A DNA stretch of 64,000 nt from Candidatus Obscuribacteraceae bacterium (GTDB lineage: Bacteria > Cyanobacteriota > Vampirovibrionia > Obscuribacterales > Obscuribacteraceae), in NCBI GenBank assembly GCA_044226015.1, contig JBGAHS010000001.1:992001-1056000 (forward strand), written 5' to 3'. Positions 51,197-64,000 of the stretch are shown here, one piece after another. Made by a program: the position numbers and the translations under genes. Numbering within the stretch: position 1 is the stretch's first letter; the number at the start of each line of letters is the position of its first letter. The notes below the pieces were generated by a model. The model searched no databases. It had not been told where the DNA came from and saw only the letters and a list, made by a program, of their open reading frames with translations.

Positions 51197-52783
51197 CTAC
51201 GGACCTCCGAGAGTCATATCGTAAACGTAAACCTGATCTCTGCCTTTCTCTTTTGCTTTGTAGAGAGCTTCATCCGCTCTCTTGAACAAGTCGTCGGGGT
51301 CGCTTGCATGCAGAGGAAAGTTTGCAACTCCAATTGACGCTGATATTGTTTTCCCCGTGCTATCGAGAATTGTCTCACTAATCAACTTCCGCACGCGCTC
51401 AGCAATGAGGACTGATTCCTCGAGCAGAGTATTCGGAAGAAGCAGGCAGAACTCTTCACCTCCATAGCGAGCTACGACGTCAATGGATCGGGAAGACCGG
51501 GACAAAACACTCGCTACTGCTTTTATAGCATCATCTCCAGCGGTGTGCCCGAACGTGTCGTTTATTTTCTTCAGGTAGTCCAGGTCAACAACCGCAAGGG
51601 TCATGGGCTCTGCATAACGCCTTGCCCTCTCAAATTCTTTGTAGAAACATTCATTAAAATTACGACGATTGGACACGCCGGTTAAACCGTCTGTCACTGC
51701 CTGAAGTTTCTTTTCTTCATGGAGGTCTGCGTTTTCTACTGCTACGGAAAGATGGTCGGCAAGTGCTCCGAAGAATGTTAGGTCATCGATGCTCCATGGG
51801 CGCGGCATCTTGCAATCTTGCAAGAATATTGCACCGATAGTTCTGTCGCGCATAATTAAGGGAATGATGAGCCCCGAAAGAAAACCAAAGCTGTTCAAAA
51901 ATTCTTTGTCGAAGCCTTGCGATGGTCCGAACTCGCCATCGCCCAATTCGCAGGGAGCAGTCTTGCTCATTATGCTACTAACGAAGGCCTGACCCTGTTC
52001 AGAAAAAAACTTTGATTGAGCTGGTTCGATGCTTGCATTGTTGAACTCATAAACTTGTAAACTTGCTGCCGGTCTCAGTATTAGACATCGGCTCAGGTCA
52101 AACTTCTGTCCGAGGCTATTAACCGAATTTTGCAGAACCTTTTGAATCTCTACCGAGCTGCGCATTGCGCTGGAAATTTCGTAGAGAAGCTTATCGCGCT
52201 CTATAGTGCGGAAGCGCAAAGCGTCTTTAACAGTCAAGTCCTGGATAAGCTTTCTAGTCTGATCTTCGAGATTTGCGTTCTGATCTTCCAGGTCATCGTA
52301 GCGGCTGCGGAGTCTTTCGTTTTCTCTTTTGACTTCTCTGATTTCCCATGCGTTTGATAACGCAGTGTGGAGTGGTAGCTCGTCCAACTTAGCCTTCACT
52401 GCTTCGATGTCAAAGCTCTTACCAGCAAGTAGTAACGCTGCACAGAGCTTTCCATCTTCCTGAATTCTGACATAGACAAGTTCCGTGTCGTCTGGCAGGT
52501 CTTCATCTGTGTCGTACTCTCCGACGGTTTTCTCATCGAATTCGCGGCTCTGTTCGAGTTCTTCGGCGAATTCGTTGCTTATCGATGTAAGAAGTTGCCT
52601 GTTTTGTCCGTAAAAATATTTGTCACTTACCGTCTCAACGTCATTGTCCCAGATAAGTACTGCTAGAGATTCTGGTTTGAAAGCAGATAGGAATTCGTCC
52701 GCAACTGACTCAAGCACCTCATTAAATTCCAGGGTGCCGAGCAATCGGAGATATTTGTTTGTCTGGGTTTTGGTGGATTTCAT
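51197..52783 (-). CDS. GAF-containing diguanylate cyclase
   Basis: GAF (PLIMRDRTIG, RPWS, AVENADL), TDGLTGVSNRR, KKINDTFGH, RSID I-site, RYGGEEF. Confidence 0.92.
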   Translation of the reverse strand: MKSTKTQTNKYLRLLGTLEFNEVLESVADEFLSAFKPESLAVLIWDNDVETVSDKYFYGQNRQLLTSISNEFAEELEQSREFDEKTVGEYDTDEDLPDDTELVYVRIQEDGKLCAALLLAGKSFDIEAVKAKLDELPLHTALSNAWEIREVKRENERLRSRYDDLEDQNANLEDQTRKLIQDLTVKDALRFRTIERDKLLYEISSAMRSSVEIQKVLQNSVNSLGQKFDLSRCLILRPAASLQVYEFNNASIEPAQSKFFSEQGQAFVSSIMSKTAPCELGDGEFGPSQGFDKEFLNSFGFLSGLIIPLIMRDRTIGAIFLQDCKMPRPWSIDDLTFFGALADHLSVAVENADLHEEKKLQAVTDGLTGVSNRRNFNECFYKEFERARRYAEPMTLAVVDLDYLKKINDTFGHTAGDDAIKAVASVLSRSSRSIDVVARYGGEEFCLLLPNTLLEESVLIAERVRKLISETILDSTGKTISASIGVANFPLHASDPDDLFKRADEALYKAKEKGRDQVYVYDMTLGGP

Positions 52784-53250: not shown

Positions 53251-53550
53251 TTATTCGAACTCTTTCATTAGTTTCAGCATCGTATGTCGGCGTTGCTCTC
53301 GAGATAAGTCCGGGGTGTAATGCACAGCGGCCAGCAATTTGCTTGAACTCATTTCTTGCCAGAATTGCTTATTGCTTGTGTATTCTTCATTGTCGAGACA
53401 GTCTTTTACGCAAATTGTTTCGTCTAACTCAATCAGTTCAAACTCGCCTTTTCTTTCAGTGAAGAGCGCATAAATTCCTGCCGCGTCCCTTAAGTCTTCC
53501 GCGTCTGCAAACGGTCCTTCAAATTCCAATGGTCCAATAAAAATTCCCAT
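53251..53550 (-). CDS. Small acidic protein, degenerate GIY-YIG-like
   Basis: FEGPF...AGIYAL present but the YIG element and catalytic Arg are not evident; AGGAG RBS. Confidence 0.55.
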   Translation of the reverse strand: MGIFIGPLEFEGPFADAEDLRDAAGIYALFTERKGEFELIELDETICVKDCLDNEEYTSNKQFWQEMSSSKLLAAVHYTPDLSREQRRHTMLKLMKEFE

Positions 53551-53954
53551 GGGGTACTCCTGCCGTTACGTCTTTAGAGTGCAATTTCGTTGGAAGCTTC
53601 TTCGTTTCGATGCGAATATCTTGCCAGCGAAATACTAAGGAGAGGTTAAAGTAATCTCCTGACTTTTCGTTTTACTAAGATTTTGTTCGCACCGTATGTG
53701 GTGCTTGCCGTTTGGCAGTTCTTGTTTCCATTTTTTGCTCAGCAATCAGTTGTCTTAAGACTGTTCACTGTGCTGTCGGTTACCGAGAGGGGCGCTTCTG
53801 TGAGCCGGTGTTAAACCGAATCTTTACTTTACATATGCATTTCGAAATCAATCTTTACCAGCGGCAGGCCTTATCATCTAATGGCGACCGTAAGTGATGA
53901 AGTTGGGTTCAATTTCATCTATCTCGAAAGTAGTGATCAGAAGGAGCGGGCAGC

Positions 53955-55214
53955 GTGTCTGCAAACAGTGAGACCGAAACTGCCAGCTCAAACCCCTTCT
54001 TCGTTTTGCGGGATGCCAACTCCCAGAAGGTTTTCTGGGGGCAATTGATTTCGCAATCATGCGATAAGCTTCTCTCGGTTGGAATGATTTGGGTTTTAAG
54101 CACCAGATTTAGTCCTAAATGGGTGCCCTGGTTCATCGCGCTTGGAGCTCTGCCACACTTCGTTTTGGCTTTGAAGTCGGGAGATCTTATTGGGCGATGG
54201 GGCACTCTGCGCACTGTTATCTGGACCGATATTCTTCGAGGAATTTTGTTTGTTGGAATTGCAGCATCGATGCCGCTGCTCTCTGATGACAAAGTGCTTT
54301 TGGCGATTTTGATGGCTGCCGCGTTTGTTTCTAATATTGCTGGTGCTCTCTTCAACCCTGCAATTTTGACCCTGCCATTGGAACTAATGCCTGAAGGCGA
54401 GAATCGTGACAAATTGACCGCTTTGATTGATTCTTGTTTTTCCTGGGGTAACGTTTTGGGCCCACTGGTATCAGCGCTCAGTTATGCTTGGGTAGGTCTT
54501 GGGGGAATGCTTGCGTTAAATGGTTTAAGTTACTTCATCTCTGCGGCGTTGGCGCTGACGATTAAACTTCCCAAACTGATTAAGAGCGAGGAAGCAAAGA
54601 AGCAGGAACCTACAGCGAGCGAAGCACCCAAAACGAAGACCACGAAAGAGATTCTGAAAAGTCAACCAGTTATTTCTGGAATGCTTTTCACTTTTTTATT
54701 TATGAACTTCTTTTTGGCGCCTCTCATGATATTCATGCCCTGGTATGCGAAAAATGTGTATAGCGAAGGAATCGCAGCATTAGCAAAACTCGAATTCTCG
54801 CTGGGAATGGGAACTGTTGCAGGTGGTCTTTTGCTTTCTCTCGTCAAACTACCAGGAGCTACTTGGAAGCGTGTGAGCTTATCACTGCTTCTGATGGCAG
54901 TCTCCTATCTTGCATTCACGTTCTCGAAGAACATTTGGATAGCCTGTTCTGCAGTTCTCATGCTTGGGTTCTTTCTTTCGCTTGCAAATGTTGTTTGTTT
55001 GACATTTTTTCAAAGCACGCCTGAAGCCGAAGATGTGCCCAAGGTGATGGGACTTGTAAATTTGATCAGTGTTGCTTCCCTGCCTATCTCCATGGGTGTT
55101 GTGGGAGCGATCATCGAGAGAGTTCTTGTTCCTGATTTCGCCGCTATCTGTGCTGGGCTTGTAATTGGAATCGCACTGTTGATTCCGTTCATTCCTGGAA
55201 TCAGGAGGGTCTAA
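53955..55214 (+). CDS. MFS transporter (macrolide-efflux/EntS-like)
   Basis: About 12 hydrophobic segments; FWGQLIS, ALFNPA, GNVLGP, NGLSY; AAGGAG before GTG. Confidence 0.9.
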   Translation: MSANSETETASSNPFFVLRDANSQKVFWGQLISQSCDKLLSVGMIWVLSTRFSPKWVPWFIALGALPHFVLALKSGDLIGRWGTLRTVIWTDILRGILFVGIAASMPLLSDDKVLLAILMAAAFVSNIAGALFNPAILTLPLELMPEGENRDKLTALIDSCFSWGNVLGPLVSALSYAWVGLGGMLALNGLSYFISAALALTIKLPKLIKSEEAKKQEPTASEAPKTKTTKEILKSQPVISGMLFTFLFMNFFLAPLMIFMPWYAKNVYSEGIAALAKLEFSLGMGTVAGGLLLSLVKLPGATWKRVSLSLLLMAVSYLAFTFSKNIWIACSAVLMLGFFLSLANVVCLTFFQSTPEAEDVPKVMGLVNLISVASLPISMGVVGAIIERVLVPDFAAICAGLVIGIALLIPFIPGIRRV

Positions 55215-55215
55215 C

Positions 55216-56370
55216 ATGCGTATTGTTATCGAAAAACCAGCCCTTGAGGATATCGATGAACTGTTGAAGTTATACTTCATGGTTTACGGACAAAACTATC
55301 CTATTGCGTTAGGTAATAACTCAGAAGCTGCTGCTCAAGCCGTTCTATCTGATGATTATGTTTGGTTGATTGCGCGAGACAGATCTCGCTCGCGTATGAT
55401 AGTCGGTTCTATGGTGTATGAATTAGATCGACTCGACAAAGTGGCAAAAGCGCTAGCTCTGGTCGTTCACCCCGACTACCGTAAAGTCGGAATCGCCTCT
55501 CGCTTGTGTGCCTGGGGCGACAAACTAATCGAAAAAGGTGGACCTTTCAATTCGATTTATACGACGACGCGAACGCAAGGAATTGGTCCGCAGCTAATCT
55601 TTTTGAAGGAAAATTATCTTCCGCTGGGAATTTTTCCGAACGCGCATAAAATAAAGCGGCATGAGACTACAACGCTGTTTGCCAAGTTTCAAGAGGGCGT
55701 GTTAGAAAGACGAGTCGCTACTGAAAAAATCCCTACGCGCTTGGTTCCGCTCTACCAAATAGTTCAGCGGTATTATCCCGGTTTGCAAATTCCTCCAAGT
55801 GAAAATCTGTCAGACAGATCGATCAAAATGCACTCCCCATGGGATACAAGCTTTGAGGCAATCTTTGCACCTCACTATGTGCTTCGAAGGTTTAAGGCTC
55901 AAATTACCGATACCAACGCGCAGTTCTATCCATTCCATTTGCCAAACTTGCTGATAGCTGATGACTCAGGTAAGGTCGAGATTTTTGCTTATTACAACCA
56001 GTTAGACGGTTATTGCACGCTAATTTCATGCAATCAACCGATGTACGCCTTGCACGAAACTTTTCCTTCATTGTTGGAGAAACTTCGTTCGCTCGGAATA
56101 ACTTATGTGGAAGTCTTGATTGGAGCAAACAGATTCGAGTCGCTGGAAGTCTTGATGCGAGCTCAATTCTTGCCCTCGGCTCTTTACCCTGGCATGCGAG
56201 AAATCAATGGCGCCACTTACGACTACGTGATCATGACTCGCACAATGGAACCGCTCGATTTCCGCGGCATGCAGGTCGAGCAAGCTTTCAAACCGTATGT
56301 TGACCAGTATGTTGCTCTCTGGAAGAAAATGCACCTCGATGCCCTGGAGGTCTTTGATGACTACCGCTAG
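55216..56370 (+). CDS. GNAT family acyltransferase with an extended C-terminal domain
   Basis: Motif A LVVHPDYRKVGIASRL; starts 1 nt after the MFS stop. Confidence 0.8.
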   Translation: MRIVIEKPALEDIDELLKLYFMVYGQNYPIALGNNSEAAAQAVLSDDYVWLIARDRSRSRMIVGSMVYELDRLDKVAKALALVVHPDYRKVGIASRLCAWGDKLIEKGGPFNSIYTTTRTQGIGPQLIFLKENYLPLGIFPNAHKIKRHETTTLFAKFQEGVLERRVATEKIPTRLVPLYQIVQRYYPGLQIPPSENLSDRSIKMHSPWDTSFEAIFAPHYVLRRFKAQITDTNAQFYPFHLPNLLIADDSGKVEIFAYYNQLDGYCTLISCNQPMYALHETFPSLLEKLRSLGITYVEVLIGANRFESLEVLMRAQFLPSALYPGMREINGATYDYVIMTRTMEPLDFRGMQVEQAFKPYVDQYVALWKKMHLDALEVFDDYR

Positions 56371-57529
56371 TGTTTTGGTTCCTGATTCAAGTTCACTCCG
56401 AAAAGTGCAGCAGCTCTGCGATATCAGTGAACCATATCTGGTATCAAACGAAGCGGACGCCCTTTTCGTAGAAGCCATGCAAGAAATTGTTGCCTGGCAT
56501 TCTGAAAAAAATGAGTTCTACAGGAAACTACTTGAGCTGAAGCGCTTTGACCCGCACTCATTGAAAAAGGTTGAGGATTGCGCTTCAATTCCTTTCGTGC
56601 TTGCTAATTTCTTCAAGGCACACGAGCAAAAGTCAGTCAGTGAAGACAAAATTTCTGTTCATCTAACTTCGTCCGGCACCACCGGGCAGAAATCTCAGAT
56701 GTTTTTTGACGATTGGACCTTGGGTTCGGCGCAGCGGATGATTGATTTCATATTCGACTTTAATGGTTGGACCAGTGAAAACCCATGCAATTATCTCTTG
56801 TACTCATACGAGACCGAAGCTGATTCAAAGTTAGGTACTGCGTATACTGATAATTTCCTTTGCAAGTACGCGCCCATTAACCGAGTTTTCACCTCGCTTC
56901 GGCTCACGGGCAGTGGAACTCACGAATTTGATATTTTTGGTTGCATTGATAGATTGCGCGAGTTTGAAAAGGATGGTCGTCCTGTCAGAATATTTGGATT
57001 CCCAGCGTTTCTGCATTTTACGCTTGAGAGAATGCGGGCTTTGAAAGTGCCACCACTTAAGTTGTCTGAAGACTCGCTTGTATTCTTAGGTGGCGGCTGG
57101 AAGGGAAATGCGGACAAGGCTATCGATAAATTAGATTTATACCGTCATTGCAACGAGCTTTTGGGAATTCCAGATAAGCGCCTTCGCGATGGTTTTGGCT
57201 CAGTAGAGCATTGTATTCCATACATCGAATGTGAGAACCATCAGTTTCATGTTCCTGTATGGTCGCGAGTTTTTGTTCGCGATTTGAAGACTCTCGAGGC
57301 ACTTCCCTATGGTGAAAAAGGTTTCTTGCATTTTGTGTCCCCCTACATAACATCAGTTCCGGCAGCAAGTGTTTTGATGGGAGATCTTGCCTCTGTGCAT
57401 GAGGCGAAGACCTGCGGCTGTTCCCTAGAAACTCCATATTTCGTGGTTCATGGTCGTGCTGGTTTGTCCCGCAACAAGAGCTGCGCAGTCGCTGCTGCAG
57501 AGCTAATGGGTAAAGGGGGCAAGGTATGA
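56357..57529 (+). CDS. LuxE-like acyl-protein synthetase
   Basis: IPF...FFK, TSSGTTGQKS, GFP, GGGWKG, G.VE, D, GR...KSCA. GGAGG precedes ATG 56357; the track start of 56297 is too early. Confidence 0.85.
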   Translation: MTTASVLVPDSSSLRKVQQLCDISEPYLVSNEADALFVEAMQEIVAWHSEKNEFYRKLLELKRFDPHSLKKVEDCASIPFVLANFFKAHEQKSVSEDKISVHLTSSGTTGQKSQMFFDDWTLGSAQRMIDFIFDFNGWTSENPCNYLLYSYETEADSKLGTAYTDNFLCKYAPINRVFTSLRLTGSGTHEFDIFGCIDRLREFEKDGRPVRIFGFPAFLHFTLERMRALKVPPLKLSEDSLVFLGGGWKGNADKAIDKLDLYRHCNELLGIPDKRLRDGFGSVEHCIPYIECENHQFHVPVWSRVFVRDLKTLEALPYGEKGFLHFVSPYITSVPAASVLMGDLASVHEAKTCGCSLETPYFVVHGRAGLSRNKSCAVAAAELMGKGGKV

Positions 57530-60054
57530 GCACTTTAGCAACTCCGCACCTCTGGCAAGGGCACTGGCTCAGCGATGAAGAACTGGAAAATCGCCTGCCA
57601 AATCTAGCAGGTGATGTGCGTGTAGCACTTGCGTCTCCTTTTGAGGTTCGACACTTGCTTGATGCATGCGAACGTTTGAGCAAGCGCTTGCGCAAGAAAG
57701 ATGATGAGGTATATCTGGCTCTCGAGAAGCTGCTTTCCACCGGTTTTCGAATGGAAGAGGCTGAGCGCAGGAAGGAGTTAAAAGAGTTAGCTGACTTCTT
57801 GCGGCGAGCAGATCTCGAAGAAAAATTGGCTTGTGAGTTGGGCAAAGGTGACCCTTTCAATTTTGTTCGAGCTGATCAACGCGAGGACAATTTTGAACGC
57901 TGGAGCCCTCTAGGGTTCCTTGTTCATATTGCCCCAACAAATGCTTACAGTGCTGGTGCCTGGAGTATTCTGGAAGGTTTGTTGAGCGGAAACGTCAACT
58001 TTCTCAAGACTGGTGGCAGCGATGAAATATTTGCACAGTTGTTTTTGAAATATTTGACCGATGAAGACTTGTCTAACACGATTGCGCCTCGTATTTTTGC
58101 TTGCAGAATTTCTTCCCGTAACCAGAAAATGCTGACAGAGGTGCTTTCGCTCGCAGATGGCGTTGTCGTCTGGGGAGATGAAGGTGCAATTTCTGGTATC
58201 AAAGCTATTTCGCCGCCACATGCCCGGTTTATTGATTGGGGTCCCAAAATTTCGTTTGCTTATTTTGCAGAAGATTGCTTAGAAGATGAGGAGTCGATTG
58301 AAGGGCTGGCGTTCGAGTGTTGCCGCATGGAGCAGCAAGCGTGTTCGAGCCCTCAATGTGTTTATGTGGAAACAGAAGACCGCGCTATTCTTGCGAAGTT
58401 TGCGCAACGATTGGCATCTAGTTTGCAGCAACATTCGTTGCAAGTTCCAGTAAAATCACCTTCTGGGCAAGAGCAGGCTGAAATCACTTCGGTGGTTGAG
58501 CTATGCAGGCTGGAATCATGCCTTGGACTAACGGACTTAATAGAAGACCCAAATGGTGACTGGCGCATTTTAATTGATTATTCAAGCGTGATGAAGGCAT
58601 CTCCGCTCTATAGAACCATCTGGGTTAAACCAATGCTGCGTGGAAAAATCGTCGAGACGCTCAGTCCCTTCAGATTTTTTCTACAGACTGCTGGTCTTGC
58701 TGCAAAATTGAACTCGATTTCTGAGTTGAGTGAGTCGCTGATTCAAGCAGGTGTTTTGAGAATCACAAAATGCGGTGAGATGCTGGAAAGCTACAGTGGT
58801 GAACCGCATGATGGTGTATATGCGCTGCAGCGCTACTCAAAGAAAATAAGCATGCAGCGAGGTGCAGACCTGGCAGGAATTTCGACATTTGCAGATTTGA
58901 AATTGTCTCAATTCTCTCCGCCTTCCGCCCCAATTCTTAGTAAGGAAGGCTTTCAGGCTCATAAAGTTGAAGAAGAATACTCCCATCTGTTTTTCAAGAG
59001 TGGTGGAAGCACTGGAGAGCCAAAGCTGTCGATATTTAGTTATGATGATTACCATCACCAAATGCGAGCTGCTGCTTATGGACTTGTTGCTGCCGGGCTC
59101 GACGTGAAAGTCGATCGTTGTATGAATCTCTTCTTTGCTGGAGGTTTGTACGGCGGTTTTGTGAGCTTCTTCACGATTTTGGAAGAACTCGAAGCCATTC
59201 AGTATCCTATGGCTGGAATTAACGACCTTGAATTAGTTGCTAGAACAATCGTTTCCCAGAAATGCAATGTGCTTCTGGGCATGCCTTCTTACATCATTCA
59301 GCTGTTTACCAATAATGCTGAGCTGTTTCGTAAGAATCAAGTGGTGGAAAAGATTCTCTATGGTGGCGAGCACTTCAATGAAAGCCAACGAAGACATTTT
59401 CAGAGAGAGTTCGGAATAAAGACTATAAGATCTTCCGGCTATGGAAGTGTAGATGCTGGTCCGATTGGCTACCAGTGCACACACTGCACGGGCGCTGTTC
59501 ATCACCTTCACAGTCGGCTGCATATTATGGAACTGCTGGAACTTGATCGCGATGTGGCGGTCGAAGATAAAGAGCCCGGCAGGGTGGTTCTCACTTCACT
59601 CGCTCGCGCAGGGCAGAAAATCGAGCGATATGATATTGGTGATCTGGCAAGACGGCTAAGCGGAGATTGTGAATGTGGTCGTCGCTCACCCAGGTTTGAG
59701 TTGCTGGGAAGGCACGGTGATGTTTTCCGGATAGGCTCTGCGTTTTTCAATTATGGAAAGTTTGTACAGATAGCTGGCGAAGTGTTCGATTTTGCAGGCG
59801 AGCTGCAGATTGTGCTGCGACCTTCAAGTGGTAGCCGACAGGAAGAACTCGCACTTTATCTGTCCAATCACAGGGCTCATTCGACAGAGGAAATTAAAGC
59901 CGCCTTTCTTGATAATTATGCGGATTTGCATGAAATCGTAGTTCGAGAGAATCTTTTAGATTTGACAATTACTCATGTCGATACCGACTCTTTGAAGAGA
60001 ACCACAGGTAGTGGCAAGCTTCGAAGAATAATTGATGAGAGAGCAGGAGTTTGA
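57526..60054 (+). CDS. LuxC-like acyl-CoA/acyl-protein reductase fused to a PaaK-like (ANL) ligase domain
   Basis: PLGFLVHIAPTN, LLSGN, WGPKISF, EQQACSSPQ (Cys), HDG (LuxC); FKSGGSTGEPK, GGE, GYGSVDAG, RYDIGD, LLGR, GKLRRIID (ANL). Confidence 0.85.
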   Translation: MSTLATPHLWQGHWLSDEELENRLPNLAGDVRVALASPFEVRHLLDACERLSKRLRKKDDEVYLALEKLLSTGFRMEEAERRKELKELADFLRRADLEEKLACELGKGDPFNFVRADQREDNFERWSPLGFLVHIAPTNAYSAGAWSILEGLLSGNVNFLKTGGSDEIFAQLFLKYLTDEDLSNTIAPRIFACRISSRNQKMLTEVLSLADGVVVWGDEGAISGIKAISPPHARFIDWGPKISFAYFAEDCLEDEESIEGLAFECCRMEQQACSSPQCVYVETEDRAILAKFAQRLASSLQQHSLQVPVKSPSGQEQAEITSVVELCRLESCLGLTDLIEDPNGDWRILIDYSSVMKASPLYRTIWVKPMLRGKIVETLSPFRFFLQTAGLAAKLNSISELSESLIQAGVLRITKCGEMLESYSGEPHDGVYALQRYSKKISMQRGADLAGISTFADLKLSQFSPPSAPILSKEGFQAHKVEEEYSHLFFKSGGSTGEPKLSIFSYDDYHHQMRAAAYGLVAAGLDVKVDRCMNLFFAGGLYGGFVSFFTILEELEAIQYPMAGINDLELVARTIVSQKCNVLLGMPSYIIQLFTNNAELFRKNQVVEKILYGGEHFNESQRRHFQREFGIKTIRSSGYGSVDAGPIGYQCTHCTGAVHHLHSRLHIMELLELDRDVAVEDKEPGRVVLTSLARAGQKIERYDIGDLARRLSGDCECGRRSPRFELLGRHGDVFRIGSAFFNYGKFVQIAGEVFDFAGELQIVLRPSSGSRQEELALYLSNHRAHSTEEIKAAFLDNYADLHEIVVRENLLDLTITHVDTDSLKRTTGSGKLRRIIDERAGV

Positions 60055-60069
60055 TGGGACTAAAATCAG

Positions 60070-61344
60070 ATGAAGATATTTGATTGGAAAGAACTTGCTA
60101 AATTCGCTAAGCAGAATTCAGTTTATTATGGAAAGCTCTACTCGGGCATCAGTCATTTCGAGAAATTGAGCGATTTGCCAGTGGTTGATCAAGCCGAGTT
60201 TTGGGCTGCAAACACGAGTAAAAACAATCAAGTATTCACCTCGAAGCAGACGGATGGAATTGTCTTCAAGAGTGGAGGAACAACCGGCAATCCAAAGTTC
60301 TCCGTTTTCTCCAAAGAAGAGTGGGACCTATTTACGAGATTTTTTGGGGAAGGTATGAACAAGGGCGGTATGGTCGCAAGTGACCGCATTGCTAACCTAT
60401 TTTATGCTGGAGAATTATATGCTTCGTTCATTTTTATAATGAAGTGCATCGAATCGGCGCCGACACCGGCATTGCAATTTCCTATCAGTGGAAGCACCAA
60501 GCCGGAAATTATTTTGCAGACCGTAAGAGAATTTGATATCAATGTTCTTGCCGGACTGCCCACCACAATAATGAATGTAGCTGAATTCTATGCACATAAC
60601 CGGGAAGCCTTCCCCGAAGTTAAAGTGAGCAAGATTCTTTTTGGCGGTGAATCTATGTATCCCGACCAGCGCAGGCGACTGCAAGAATTGTTTCCCGGTG
60701 TTTCCATTCGCTCAATCGGATATGCCAGTGTTGATGCTGGTCTGCTTGGTTATTTTGATGATAGCTGTGAGGCGGATGAACACAGATGTTTTGGAACTGC
60801 CACAGTGCTTGAGATTGTGGATGACGATACCAACGAACCTATAACAGAGCCCAATAAGCCGGGCAAGGTCCTGTTGACGAGTCTGATCCGAGGATATATG
60901 CCGATAATTCGCTACCCTGTAGGCGATAGAGCAATATGGACGGAGGAAGCTTCGGAGTCAAATCTTGATCGCAAGTTTCTAATTCTTGGACGTTCTGAGG
61001 AAGCCGCAAGAGTGGGACCTGTTTCGGTTTACTATGAGGACATGCGTTCATTTTTGGATGGCTTAGAGCTGGATTTTCAAGTGACCGGATTTCAATTGCT
61101 GATTTCGCATTCCGAGTTGAAAGACAAGCTGACGGTGAGAATAGCATGTCCCGAGAAACCAGCTGACACCAAAATAATTGATCAATTCATCGCTGACTCG
61201 TTCGGTCGAGAGCGAAAAATGTTTGCTGAAGCCTCAGCAGATAACAAGATTCATCCGCTGCATATCGACTGGGTTGAGCCGTCTGCATTTGAAATCAATC
61301 CTAGAACAGGCAAGCTTCGCAGAGTAATAGACAATCGAAATTGA
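60070..61344 (+). CDS. Phenylacetate-CoA ligase (PaaK)-like ANL enzyme
   Basis: FKSGGTTGNPK, FGGE, GYASVDAG, PIIRYPVGD, ILGR, RTGKLRRVID. Confidence 0.88.
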   Translation: MKIFDWKELAKFAKQNSVYYGKLYSGISHFEKLSDLPVVDQAEFWAANTSKNNQVFTSKQTDGIVFKSGGTTGNPKFSVFSKEEWDLFTRFFGEGMNKGGMVASDRIANLFYAGELYASFIFIMKCIESAPTPALQFPISGSTKPEIILQTVREFDINVLAGLPTTIMNVAEFYAHNREAFPEVKVSKILFGGESMYPDQRRRLQELFPGVSIRSIGYASVDAGLLGYFDDSCEADEHRCFGTATVLEIVDDDTNEPITEPNKPGKVLLTSLIRGYMPIIRYPVGDRAIWTEEASESNLDRKFLILGRSEEAARVGPVSVYYEDMRSFLDGLELDFQVTGFQLLISHSELKDKLTVRIACPEKPADTKIIDQFIADSFGRERKMFAEASADNKIHPLHIDWVEPSAFEINPRTGKLRRVIDNRN

Positions 61345-61435
61345 GTCTAGCTTTCATAGCTATTGATCGCTTTATGACTTTTGAGCTTGCTGATTGGGAT
61401 TACCGATTTGTTCAATACCGGAGCCGACCTCTGGT

Positions 61436-62473
61436 TCAATCAAGAATTTTTTTCAGCCATAGCTTAAGCGTATCAACAGAGTCGAAGTCCAGTATGGATT
61501 CAACTAGCAATTCAAGTTTCGAAATCGAAAGTTGTTGTATTTGTGCCTCAACAACACTGTCAATTTTTCCGAATCGCTTGCTCAGGAGGCGCAAAAGCGT
61601 TTTTGCTGTGAGCTCACGGGCTTTCTCTAGTCCTTCCTGTCGACCTTCCTCGCGACCTTCCTCGCGACCTTCCTCGCGACCTTCCTCGCGACCTTCCTCG
61701 CGACCTTCCTCGCGACCTTCCTGTATAGCTTTCTCTCGTGCTATGCGCAAATCTTCCTGGTATGAAACGAGGCGACTAATTTCATCCCTTTGAACACGAA
61801 CTCGAGCTTTGTATCGCTCTCTTTCTAAATCGTCTTGACTCAGCATAACTAACTCTTCAAGTGCCTTCTTTATATGAGTATTGCATAGAGACTTTGGCAG
61901 ATGGCTGCTGTCTAAGTGGTCAGCATGGCGAAAAAAGTAGAGCCATGCGTCCAAACCATTGCTTATTTTCTCGGGCATTAGATTGAACTTGGGCAATTCC
62001 AACACCACTATTAATATATCAGAACTGAAAACAAAGCCGTTTTTTCGATTCCGAAGCTCAAAGGGCAGGCAATAATCTTCGGTTTCGGGAAAGAGAACAA
62101 AATCACAAAAGCATATGGAAATAGTTGGTCTTAGTTCATTGTATGGGTCTCCTGCGCGCAGCTGTTGCTGGTGCAATTCTGCCCAGTAGAAGAGTAGTCG
62201 TTCTTTTATTGGCCGCTCAAAAAGCAGCTGCATCTCCACATCAAATTGTCGCCCACTGCAATCACGAGCTTTCACATCGACAATTGAAAGCTTGTCGTCA
62301 ATGCTATCCTGTTCACTGAAAGGGTTCAGCAATTCAAGTGAAATTATCTCTTCCACCGCAAGAAGTGGTTTTAAAACAGCATTGAGCAAATCTATGAGTA
62401 AGGCTATATTTTGCTCTCTTCCGAAAAGCCATTTGAATGCCAGATCAATTTTGGGATCGATTCCAGGTTTCAT
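61436..62473 (-). CDS. Rpn family PD-(D/E)XK nuclease / putative transposase with EEGR repeats and a DUF4351-like tail
   Basis: DLAFKWLFG, IVDVKA, DVEMQ, RLLFYW, ELPKF, (EEGR)n, LLRLLSKRFG..LDF...L..WL; GGAGG before ATG 62473. Confidence 0.9.
   Translation of the reverse strand: MKPGIDPKIDLAFKWLFGREQNIALLIDLLNAVLKPLLAVEEIISLELLNPFSEQDSIDDKLSIVDVKARDCSGRQFDVEMQLLFERPIKERLLFYWAELHQQQLRAGDPYNELRPTISICFCDFVLFPETEDYCLPFELRNRKNGFVFSSDILIVVLELPKFNLMPEKISNGLDAWLYFFRHADHLDSSHLPKSLCNTHIKKALEELVMLSQDDLERERYKARVRVQRDEISRLVSYQEDLRIAREKAIQEGREEGREEGREEGREEGREEGREEGRQEGLEKARELTAKTLLRLLSKRFGKIDSVVEAQIQQLSISKLELLVESILDFDSVDTLKLWLKKILD
61641..61723. repeat. 12-bp perfect tandem repeat inside rpn
   Basis: CGACCTTCCTCG x6 plus a partial seventh copy; encodes REEG. 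Confidence 0.95.
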
Positions 62474-62912
62474 GGTTAATCCTCCAGAATTGTAAGAAAC
62501 TGCTGAGCTTGAGATCTTCTGCCAATTCTGAACTGATGTCCAATGAGGCATGGCACTGTATATGGTGCCAGTTCTCCCGGTACCTATCAAAATTGATAGA
62601 GCGCCAATAACTATTGGCAAATGAGATTTCGCAGGAGGTGAAAAACCGCTTCAACTCCGGCAAAGCATGTGCACGTATATACGTATGGTATCCGTGCGCG
62701 TGTTCAATTGCAATTCTTTTCAACCCAAATCTTTTAGCAATTTCTTTTGCGAAAGGTCTATCTTTTGACCTAGAGAAAAGAGCTGTTTCTATCTCTAAGT
62801 GAATCGGGTTTACTTCACTTTGAGATTAGATTTTTCCCTGATCGTCTGATAATGGCAAGCTGTTCGATGTACGTAATGTATATTCGATTGGTGGTACCAG
62901 TTATGGTGACTT

Positions 62913-64000
62913 GTGAAGCGTTCTTCCAGTAGCAAGAGAAACACAAATGCTGCGTCACACACTGTGCGAAAGAATCGGAGTGCTAATTCTGATTGCGCCA
63001 AAGCTACTGAACAGATTCAATACTTAAGTCCCAATGTCAGCAGTACCAATATATGTGTACCATTCTCTATAAATAGCTCTGACCTGAAACAAGGAGATTT
63101 TTCCATTGCTCTTGGAGGCTCAAGCAATTCTGGAATTGCGTTACCTCATACCGCTAGCCTCAATACTGACGCTACCATTCAGCAATCGCATTCACAGCAA
63201 TCTTTAGCTCAGTCGTTAGACAGGAAGACTTCGGAGGAAAATCAAAAGCCTCCCGCAAAAAGAGTTTCCGAAATTGAATTGGCCAGGCAAAAGTACATCC
63301 GTTTTTTGCAAAAGGAACGCGGTCTTTCGCTGAATACAAGTAATGCTTACAACAACGATATTTCTGCTTTTATTGCCTGGCTTGATTCCTCAAAAGTTGA
63401 AGTCAATCGCAATAGTTTGACCAAGTACTTGCAGTACTTGAAGGCGGAAGGAATGCAAGCTAGCACTCTTGCACGAAAGTTAGCCACCTTGCGAGGTTGG
63501 TTTGATTGGCAGAAGAGTAACCAACTGATTTCGAGTGACCCTAGCGATGGAATCATGAACCCTAAACTTGCGCGAAGGCTGCCGCAGGTTCTCAGCAATA
63601 ATGAAGTCACAAATATGATCGGCGCGGCTTCTACCCCACGCGAAAAGGTTATTGTTGAATTGCTTTATGGTGCCGGTCTTCGGGTTTCTGAATTGATTAC
63701 TCTGAGTTTGAATGATGTGAATTTATCTCACGGGTATGTTCGATGTTTAGGTAAAGGCAGCAAAGAAAGAATTGTGCCAATAGGTCGTGCAGCGATCGGG
63801 GCGATTAAAGAGTATCTTGACTCTGACGAGCGACTGAATCCAAAGGATGCGCCGCCGAGCACGAAAAAGAAGCGGGGGCGTCCTAAGAAAACTGTGAAAG
63901 ATATTGCCACTACTTCTGGTGGCAAGCGCAAAAAATTAGAGTACTCTGTCCCTTTGCTTGCTGACCGGCAGGGAAAAAATTTGAATCGACTTGTTGTCTG
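62913..64000 (+). CDS. xerD: XerD-type tyrosine recombinase; runs off the right edge
   Basis: Absent from the ORF track. Manual translation: FLQKERGLSLNTSNAY, STLARKLATLRGWF, RRLPQVLS, ELLYGAGLRVSEL, GKGSKERIVPIG. The frame is open from GTG 62913; start uncertain. Confidence 0.82.
   Translation, partial: MKRSSSSKRNTNAASHTVRKNRSANSDCAKATEQIQYLSPNVSSTNICVPFSINSSDLKQGDFSIALGGSSNSGIALPHTASLNTDATIQQSHSQQSLAQSLDRKTSEENQKPPAKRVSEIELARQKYIRFLQKERGLSLNTSNAYNNDISAFIAWLDSSKVEVNRNSLTKYLQYLKAEGMQASTLARKLATLRGWFDWQKSNQLISSDPSDGIMNPKLARRLPQVLSNNEVTNMIGAASTPREKVIVELLYGAGLRVSELITLSLNDVNLSHGYVRCLGKGSKERIVPIGRAAIGAIKEYLDSDERLNPKDAPPSTKKKRGRPKKTVKDIATTSGGKRKKLEYSVPLLADRQGKNLNRLVV

Follow-up and report, generated by a model that had tools for sequence, protein, structure and literature searches.

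We analyzed a 64,000-nucleotide stretch of DNA (hereafter the window; contig JBGAHS010000001.1, positions 992,001 to 1,056,000) from a Candidatus Obscuribacteraceae bacterium with a source genome of 8.19 Mb in 13 contigs. Five genes at window positions 53955–61344 are probably a distant variant of the leupeptin (leup) operon, and would assemble a small N-acylated peptide aldehyde for export with neither a nonribosomal peptide synthetase (NRPS) nor a carrier protein. The pathway type is already known, the genes are not lux genes, and the annotation of the locus is corrected here. An initial annotation, made from the letters of the sequence, had described a row of five co-oriented and tightly joined genes. 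Open reading frame (ORF) calling returned the same coordinates, with all five genes on the plus strand, and the four junctions agree with those described: genes one and two lie 1 nt apart, two and three overlap by 14 nt, three and four overlap at an ATGA, and 15 nt separate four and five. The features of the locus are as follows:

53941–53946, plus strand: Shine-Dalgarno-like AAGGAG, read directly, 8 nt before the GTG of the MFS gene
53955–55214, plus strand: MFS transporter, DHA3/EntS-like, 419 aa, GTG start
55216–56370, plus strand: tandem-GNAT acyltransferase of "type 0", 384 aa
56357–57529, plus strand: LuxE-like acyl-protein synthetase, 390 aa
57526–60054, plus strand: LuxC::PaaK-like fusion, 842 aa
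60070–61344, plus strand: stand-alone PaaK-like adenylating ligase, 424 aa

The stop codon of the GNAT gene (TAG, 56368–56370) and the start codon of the LuxE-like gene (ATG, 56357) were read directly. The latter agrees with the start of the homologue in another Obscuribacterales locus (L075), and a longer alternative frame for the LuxE-like gene opens at 56297. The family assignments made earlier (MFS, GNAT, LuxE-like, LuxC::PaaK-like fusion, and PaaK-like) were recovered with Pfam and NCBIfam, that of the GNAT by way of an AlphaFold2 model and Foldseek.

The link to leupeptin is provided by a published operon of the same composition, that of Klebsiella oxytoca/michiganensis, Xenorhabdus, and Photorhabdus (bioRxiv 10.64898/2026.08.25.747093, PMC11480411, PMC8283571, PMC11212599). 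The leup locus of Klebsiella oxytoca (NC_016612.1) is scored by five components, namely an MFS transporter, a LuxE/PaaK-family protein, an acyl-CoA reductase, a protein of the phenylacetate-CoA-ligase family, and a GNAT listed as an N-acetyltransferase (bioRxiv 10.64898/2026.08.25.747093). Its product is acetyl-Leu-Leu-argininal, which is made without an NRPS (PMC11480411, PMC11212599) and bears an N-acetyl cap (bioRxiv 10.64898/2026.08.25.747093, PMC11480411). The leupABCD genes and an adjacent transporter span positions 315353–321183 (5.8 kb) in strain CAV1374 (PMC8283571), and leup operons, also carried by Xenorhabdus and Photorhabdus, yield leupeptin, a lysine analogue, and derived pyrazinones (PMC11480411). 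In the passages of PMC11480411 and PMC11212599 that deal with it, the NRPS-free route to leupeptin is described for gammaproteobacteria only. The same five-part set of MFS transporter, LuxE-like protein, LuxC::PaaK fusion, PaaK-like ligase, and GNAT is present in the window, again with neither an NRPS nor a carrier protein, and the earlier statement that no characterized product was known for this architecture does not hold. The cluster matches a characterized pathway in its type, with core genes homologous over their full lengths; the match does not extend to the exact product.

The homology is carried by the three core genes, which occur in the same order in the leup-type loci and retain their catalytic residues. 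Across the loci of Xenorhabdus, Photorhabdus, Cedecea, and Pseudomonas, the window proteins are 49–52% (LuxE-like protein), 36–39% (fusion), and 33–37% (second ligase) identical to their counterparts. The window fusion aligned colinearly from end to end with an 801-aa "acyl-CoA reductase" of Klebsiella michiganensis (P0166; 37% identity over 843 columns, E 5e-169), and the Cedecea fusion was 67–68% identical to the K. michiganensis 801-aa "acyl-CoA reductase". Loci of Xenorhabdus, Pseudomonas, and Cedecea have the gene order MFS, LuxE-like, fusion, ligase, and GNAT, and those of Photorhabdus have the last four in this order, the comparison there covering these four genes. The LuxE-like, fusion, ligase, and GNAT genes of the Cedecea locus (L094) together occupy 5762 bp, which fits the published 5.8-kb leup span of CAV1374. 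The gene at the leup-type locus of Xenorhabdus bakwenae is the sole LuxE-family match in its genome, and Photorhabdus khanii carries a leup-type LuxE-family gene (88.9 bits) besides a true luxE (637 bits). A third LuxE-family gene of P. khanii, scoring 130.7 bits, was also observed at G042:C4:541625-542671 (L098).

The three adenylating modules, the LuxE-type C-terminal Cys, and the LuxC Cys are all intact at the sequence level. The LuxE-like protein matched Pfam LuxE (E 1.2e-30) and scored 81.9 bits against the NCBIfam LuxE equivalog, which has a 550-bit cut-off, so that it is not a true LuxE. Its SSGTTGQK and GGGWK motifs and C-terminal Cys376 do not vary in an alignment of 12 sequences that contains a true LuxE, and Cys376 falls on the Cys that accepts the acyl group in Photorhabdus LuxE. 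It is predicted to be the LeupA counterpart, adenylating a peptide C-terminus and holding the thioester on Cys376. The fusion consists of a LuxC-like thioester reductase (about residues 1–450; Pfam LuxC, E 1.7e-85; NCBIfam LuxC, 89.4 bits vs a 750-bit cut-off) and a PaaK-like ligase (about residues 451–842; Pfam AMP-binding, E 1.6e-6, 27.6 bits vs a 29.9-bit cut-off). In 18 diverse homologues, the EQQAC(273)SSPQ segment of the LuxC domain is invariant, as are the ligase residues G493, G494, G497, and P499 of the P-loop, Y639, G640, S641, and D643, and G830 and K831; the corresponding motifs read SGGSTGEPK, YGSVD, YDIGD, and SGK. The product of the last gene matched Pfam AMP-binding (E 3.1e-8) and has the motifs SGGTTGNPK, YASVD, YPVGD, and a C-terminal TGK (Lys413), and its nearest solved relatives are the phenylacetate-CoA ligases 4r1l (E 1e-12) and 2y27 and the PaaK-like ligases 6siw and AjiA1 (6wuq). 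Both AMP-binding parts are PaaK-like by NCBIfam (E 1.7e-21 for the fusion and 6.1e-18 for the last gene, far below the equivalog cut-offs), and both retain the P-loop, the YxSVD and GD motifs, and the C-terminal lysine. From their sequences, the fusion is predicted to be the counterpart of LeupB and the stand-alone ligase that of LeupC.

The two genes upstream of this core were assigned as follows. The MFS protein matched Pfam MFS_1 (E 5e-27) and, below cut-off in both cases, the NCBIfam H+ antiporter family TIGR00900 (E 1.5e-33) and EntS (E 2e-8). It is 72% identical to the MFS protein of the Obscuribacterales locus L075, 52% to that of the Bdellovibrionales locus L018, and 43% to that of the Massilia locus L032, and it is the predicted exporter of the product. 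The second gene product was weak by sequence alone, with a Pfam Acetyltransf_7 match at E 1.2e-4 and 22.8 bits against a 27-bit cut-off. Its AlphaFold2 model (predicted local distance difference test score 88.4, predicted template modeling score 0.88) contains two alpha/beta domains; Foldseek returned single GNATs at template modeling scores of 0.66–0.83, normalized to the target, and whole-length matches to the tandem GNATs 9en3, 2wpw, and 7q3a (E 8e-10 to 9e-8). The root-mean-square deviation of the latter was 12–17 Å, which indicates that the domain orientation differs in the window protein. In the modeled structure, the tandem-GNAT fold of the second gene product was confirmed. The acyl-CoA motif R-x-x-G-x-A occurs in the N-terminal domain as YRKVGIA (about residues 87–93), and profile–profile alignment (hhalign) with LeupD-type GNATs gave a probability of 97.7% and E 1.9e-12. 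The tandem GNAT is predicted to be the N-capping enzyme and the LeupD counterpart.

A protein search with the fusion as query scored 7987 candidates, of which 1025 matched at E <= 0.001. The best matches were near full-length and were named from Obscuribacterales, Bdellovibrionales, Elusimicrobiota, Massilia, and actinomycetes. Full-length matches were present in five of seven genomes of the same genus, a strong match in two pieces in one of 17 genomes from other genera of the family (G022), and none in 16 genomes outside the family, a distribution that makes the cassette an accessory trait. A one-genome-per-species scan found at least 579 loci, and synteny was counted in the best 80 of these, to which the locus counts given here refer. 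The LuxE-like gene adjoins the fusion gene in 79 loci, the exception beginning at a contig end; 77 loci carry the second ligase, and the other three are cut off at a contig edge; a GNAT gene is a neighbor in 70; and homologues of the window MFS protein lie inside the cassette in 10. All five window genes occur in the same order in four of four Obscuribacterales loci and in the Bdellovibrionales locus L018. The recurrence of the gene set in synteny across many phyla is more than chance, and the co-conservation on which the initial annotation had made its interpretation depend is present. In a locus of the same genus (L010, G003:C218:86833-89523), the fusion matched as residues 1–447 and 449–839, about 160 nt apart in one 918-aa frame, which points to a longer LuxC–ligase linker.

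The GNAT genes fall into three types and one outlier. Type 0, to which the window GNAT belongs, was found in 34 of the 80 loci (Obscuribacterales, Bdellovibrionota, Elusimicrobiota, Massilia, and actinomycetes), type 1, of about 300 aa, in 22 (Xenorhabdus, Photorhabdus, Pseudomonas, Enterobacterales, and some Betaproteobacteria), and type 2, fused to HATPase_c_2, in 13. Phylogenetic relationships were assessed by a quick maximum-likelihood search with 82 fusion proteins and a midpoint root, which gave long-branch and uneven-composition warnings. The characterized clade comprises 24 rows from Klebsiella, Cedecea, Xenorhabdus, Photorhabdus, Pseudomonas, and some Betaproteobacteria, 22 of them with a type 1 GNAT. 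The window protein and the four Obscuribacterales loci group together (100% support in the Shimodaira–Hasegawa-like approximate likelihood ratio test, SH-aLRT), among type 0 rows and next to Bdellovibrionota. When the GNAT types were mapped onto this tree, types 0 and 1 needed 2–3 changes vs 20–26 in shuffles, and type 2 needed seven.

Examples of the type 2 GNATs, with an N-terminal HATPase_c_2 domain (RsbW/SpoIIAB-like kinase), are encoded at L020:12496-13983, L062:13698-15299, and L055:13591-15336. In Comamonas badia, a gene for a Cache-HAMP-SpoIIE phosphatase lies just upstream of the cassette (L055:6605-8599), and BLAST-linked homologues of this SpoIIE-type phosphatase (642–697 aa) flank the cassette in six loci. 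These genes suggest a partner-switching-type control of the capping step in the clades with HATPase_c_2–GNAT fusions.

Several observations weigh against the assignment of the window cluster as a leup operon variant. In the tree, the window lies outside the characterized clade, in a sister clade among the other 58 rows, across a branch of 0.73 changes per column with 100% SH-aLRT support. The window GNAT, which lies upstream of the core and is a 384-aa tandem protein of another subfamily than the roughly 300-aa LeupD type, had no BLAST match to the GNATs of the named gammaproteobacterial loci, and its profile–profile homology to them is limited to 148 columns of the N-terminal domain, with nothing further. 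Likewise, the window MFS protein had no BLAST match to the MFS proteins of the Xenorhabdus, Photorhabdus, and Pseudomonas loci. P0166 is equated with LeupB by name, length, and domains, not by locus tag, and the Klebsiella link as a whole is drawn from protein names and lengths and the leup component list. The published leupA forward primer (PMC8283571) had no exact match in 401 genomes of the family to which the Cedecea genome belongs, the genome with the Klebsiella locus evidently lying outside this sample; two matches with two mismatches, in genomes of 0.7 and 3.2 Mb, were taken as chance. The roles of the individual Leup enzymes come from passages of citing papers and from inference. The host also differs, being an uncultured Obscuribacterales-like bacterium and not a gammaproteobacterium.

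Based on the leup-like gene set, we propose the following pathway. The tandem GNAT would transfer an acyl group from an acyl-CoA to the first amino acid, at its amino group, after which the fused and the free PaaK-like modules would each activate a carboxylate by adenylation and make a single amide bond, giving an N-acyl tripeptide acid. The LuxE-like enzyme would then adenylate the C-terminal carboxylate and load it as a thioester on its own Cys376, the acyl group would move to Cys273 of the LuxC domain and be reduced by NAD(P)H to the aldehyde, and the MFS pump would export the product. The overall scheme would involve three ATP-dependent carboxylate activations, all of them inferred. With two ligations, the product predicted from the sequence is an N-acyl tripeptide aldehyde, and amino acids and peptides are more likely substrates than fatty acids. 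As the window falls outside the characterized clade and its GNAT is of another kind, its product may differ from leupeptin. The initial annotation had pictured an exported metabolite made by acid activation, reduction, ligation, acylation or self-protection by the GNAT, and efflux, with no polyketide synthase (PKS) or NRPS core; these elements are retained, with the GNAT as the acylating enzyme, and what changes is that the product type is not unknown.

Three other explanations were weighed against the peptide aldehyde assignment. The same enzymes could serve a pyrazinone or another cyclized signal as the relevant end product, with the peptide aldehyde as a precursor and not a protease inhibitor as such. 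The leup operon of Klebsiella and Photorhabdus also gives Leu-Arg and Leu-Lys pyrazinones by cleavage, cyclization, and oxidation, and these act as signals (PMC11480411). By contrast, no dedicated leupeptin-cleaving protease gene was found in the window cluster by Pfam, and since pyrazinones require the peptide aldehyde first, this explanation, which we consider improbable, would refine the peptide aldehyde assignment without replacing it. A different role for the GNAT, as a regulator acetylating the catalytic lysine of the three adenylating enzymes and controlled elsewhere by its own fused anti-sigma-kinase-like domain, appears very improbable. Pat and AcuA acetylate the catalytic lysine of acetyl-CoA synthetase, and such a role would agree with the lysine retained at the C-terminus of the PaaK modules, with the RsbW-like HATPase_c_2 fusions in 13 of 80 loci, and with the SpoIIE-type phosphatase homologues in six. 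However, the retention of a GNAT in 70 of 80 loci and the way its type follows the reductase tree, with few changes for types 0 and 1 and seven for type 2, fit a pathway enzyme, and the window GNAT has no regulatory domain in Pfam or in the AlphaFold2 model. In addition, the GNAT of the leup list is named an N-acetyltransferase and the leup product is N-acetyl-capped (bioRxiv 10.64898/2026.08.25.747093, PMC11480411).

It is also unlikely that a lux-like reductase converts a fatty or aromatic acid to an aldehyde while the other ligases and the GNAT make an N-acyl amine or similar lipid for export. Such a role draws on the Pfam LuxE and LuxC matches and on the conserved Cys residues of LuxE and LuxC, a feature shared with the fatty acid reductase complex, where the LuxE C-terminal Cys accepts the acyl group and for which a LuxC-LuxE structure has been obtained by cryogenic electron microscopy (PMC9157457). 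As in the LuxC-LuxE(-LuxD) system, a LuxE-type synthetase with a C-terminal acyl-accepting Cys is paired with a LuxC-type reductase with a catalytic Cys, and the chemistry likely runs from adenylate to enzyme thioester and NADPH-dependent reduction to the aldehyde. However, the scores of 82 and 89 bits stand against equivalog cut-offs of 550 and 750, the window LuxE-like protein is 20% identical to Photorhabdus LuxE, and the window LuxC is fused to a ligase. No luxA, luxB, acyl carrier protein (ACP), or fatty-acid gene lies beside the cluster; luxD was not searched for. This agrees with the initial annotation, in which no luxA or luxB had been seen in the window. The genome holds one LuxE-family match and one strong LuxC match, both at this locus, and a single generic Bac_luciferase-family match on another contig, a family that also gave matches in 9 of 14 control genomes, so that no luxAB locus accounts for the genes. 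Moreover, the nearest characterized relatives make a peptide aldehyde (bioRxiv 10.64898/2026.08.25.747093, PMC11480411, PMC11212599), and the lipid-acting LuxC/LuxE sets described in passages on Aeromonas flagellin glycosylation islands carry an ACP, a FabG-like 3-oxoacyl-ACP reductase, glycosyltransferases, and pse genes (PMC7874193). These islands likewise use a LuxE-LuxC pair without a luciferase, but none of their accompanying genes was found in the window by Pfam.

Candidate assignments tried and rejected include the lux fatty-aldehyde system, as LuxE and LuxC fall well short of the NCBIfam equivalog cut-offs and luxAB is lacking; a glycan island of the Aeromonas kind, as the window has no ACP or sugar genes; and a TabE-type stand-alone reductase, as the window has no tambjamine genes. 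The product class proposed here, small protease-inhibiting peptide aldehydes, is also made by Streptomyces, with antipain, chymostatin, MAPI, and flavopeptins, and livipeptin (PMC10548850, PMC11212599). These routes differ in that they rely on a tRNA-dependent transferase or on NRPS modules that end in a reductase domain, neither of which is in the window, and the NRPS routes are called convergent in a passage of PMC10548850.

The analysis bears on the breadth of the leup family. We consider it possible, if slightly short of an even chance, that the type 0 branch (Obscuribacterales, Bdellovibrionota, Elusimicrobiota, Massilia, and actinomycetes) makes its own family of N-acyl peptide aldehydes, with other caps or residues than leupeptin. 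If so, the leup family would amount to a large class of carrier-free peptide pathways that spans phyla, with at least 579 loci in one species-level collection, and without the PKS/NRPS core on which the initial annotation expected rule-based cluster finders to key. Our searches, which were not aimed specifically at the point, found no literature on the tandem-GNAT variant or on leup relatives beyond gammaproteobacteria; Li et al. 2020 (Angew Chem 59:17872), reportedly the primary paper on the leup operon and known here through papers that cite it, may cover part of this. Among the best 80 of at least 579 loci, the same enzyme logic extends to non-photosynthetic cyanobacterial relatives, predatory Bdellovibrionota, Bacteroidales, and actinomycetes, with three types of capping GNAT. 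Leupeptin is a standard laboratory protease inhibitor, and if the variants make different peptide aldehydes, they would offer a compact source of new protease inhibitors, encoded by five genes in about 7.4 kb that could be expressed as one piece, and a source of stand-alone amide-forming ligases.

With regard to the sequence context, no sigma-70-like promoter was detected by consensus in the 404 nt of spacer upstream (53551–53954), and the whole region held five sites vs 10.1 expected from shuffles; with the promoter/terminator scan below shuffles and nothing in the spacer, operon boundaries are not claimed from it. An ORF at 61341–61793 (plus strand) was rejected as a gene, as it overlaps a strongly supported PD-(D/E)XK gene on the opposite strand and has no family above cut-off. 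That neighbor, directly downstream of the cassette at 61436–62620 (minus strand), encodes a PD-(D/E)XK nuclease-family transposase with DUF4351 (E 1e-53), and is followed by a phage-integrase-family gene at 62913–63998 (plus strand) that runs off the window end. Together with the patchy distribution among relatives, these neighbors hint that the cassette lies in or next to a mobile region. Upstream are a GAF-GGDEF diguanylate cyclase gene at 51197–52783 (minus strand, E 8e-44) and, at 53251–53550 (minus strand), a 99-aa ORF without a family match in Pfam or NCBIfam.

Individual loci elsewhere carry further genes near the cassette. The locus of Kitasatospora sp. NBC_00085 encodes, near the cassette at L043:14328-15575 (minus strand), a 416-aa paralogue of the catalytic domain of alanyl-tRNA synthetase (tRNA-synt_2c, E 2e-81) and, upstream, a 1047-aa BTAD/AAA regulator. 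In Pseudomonas lini, a penicillin-amidase-family gene (L087:3798-6200, minus strand, E 2e-136) is located upstream of the cassette MFS gene, at a distance of about 1.3 kb.

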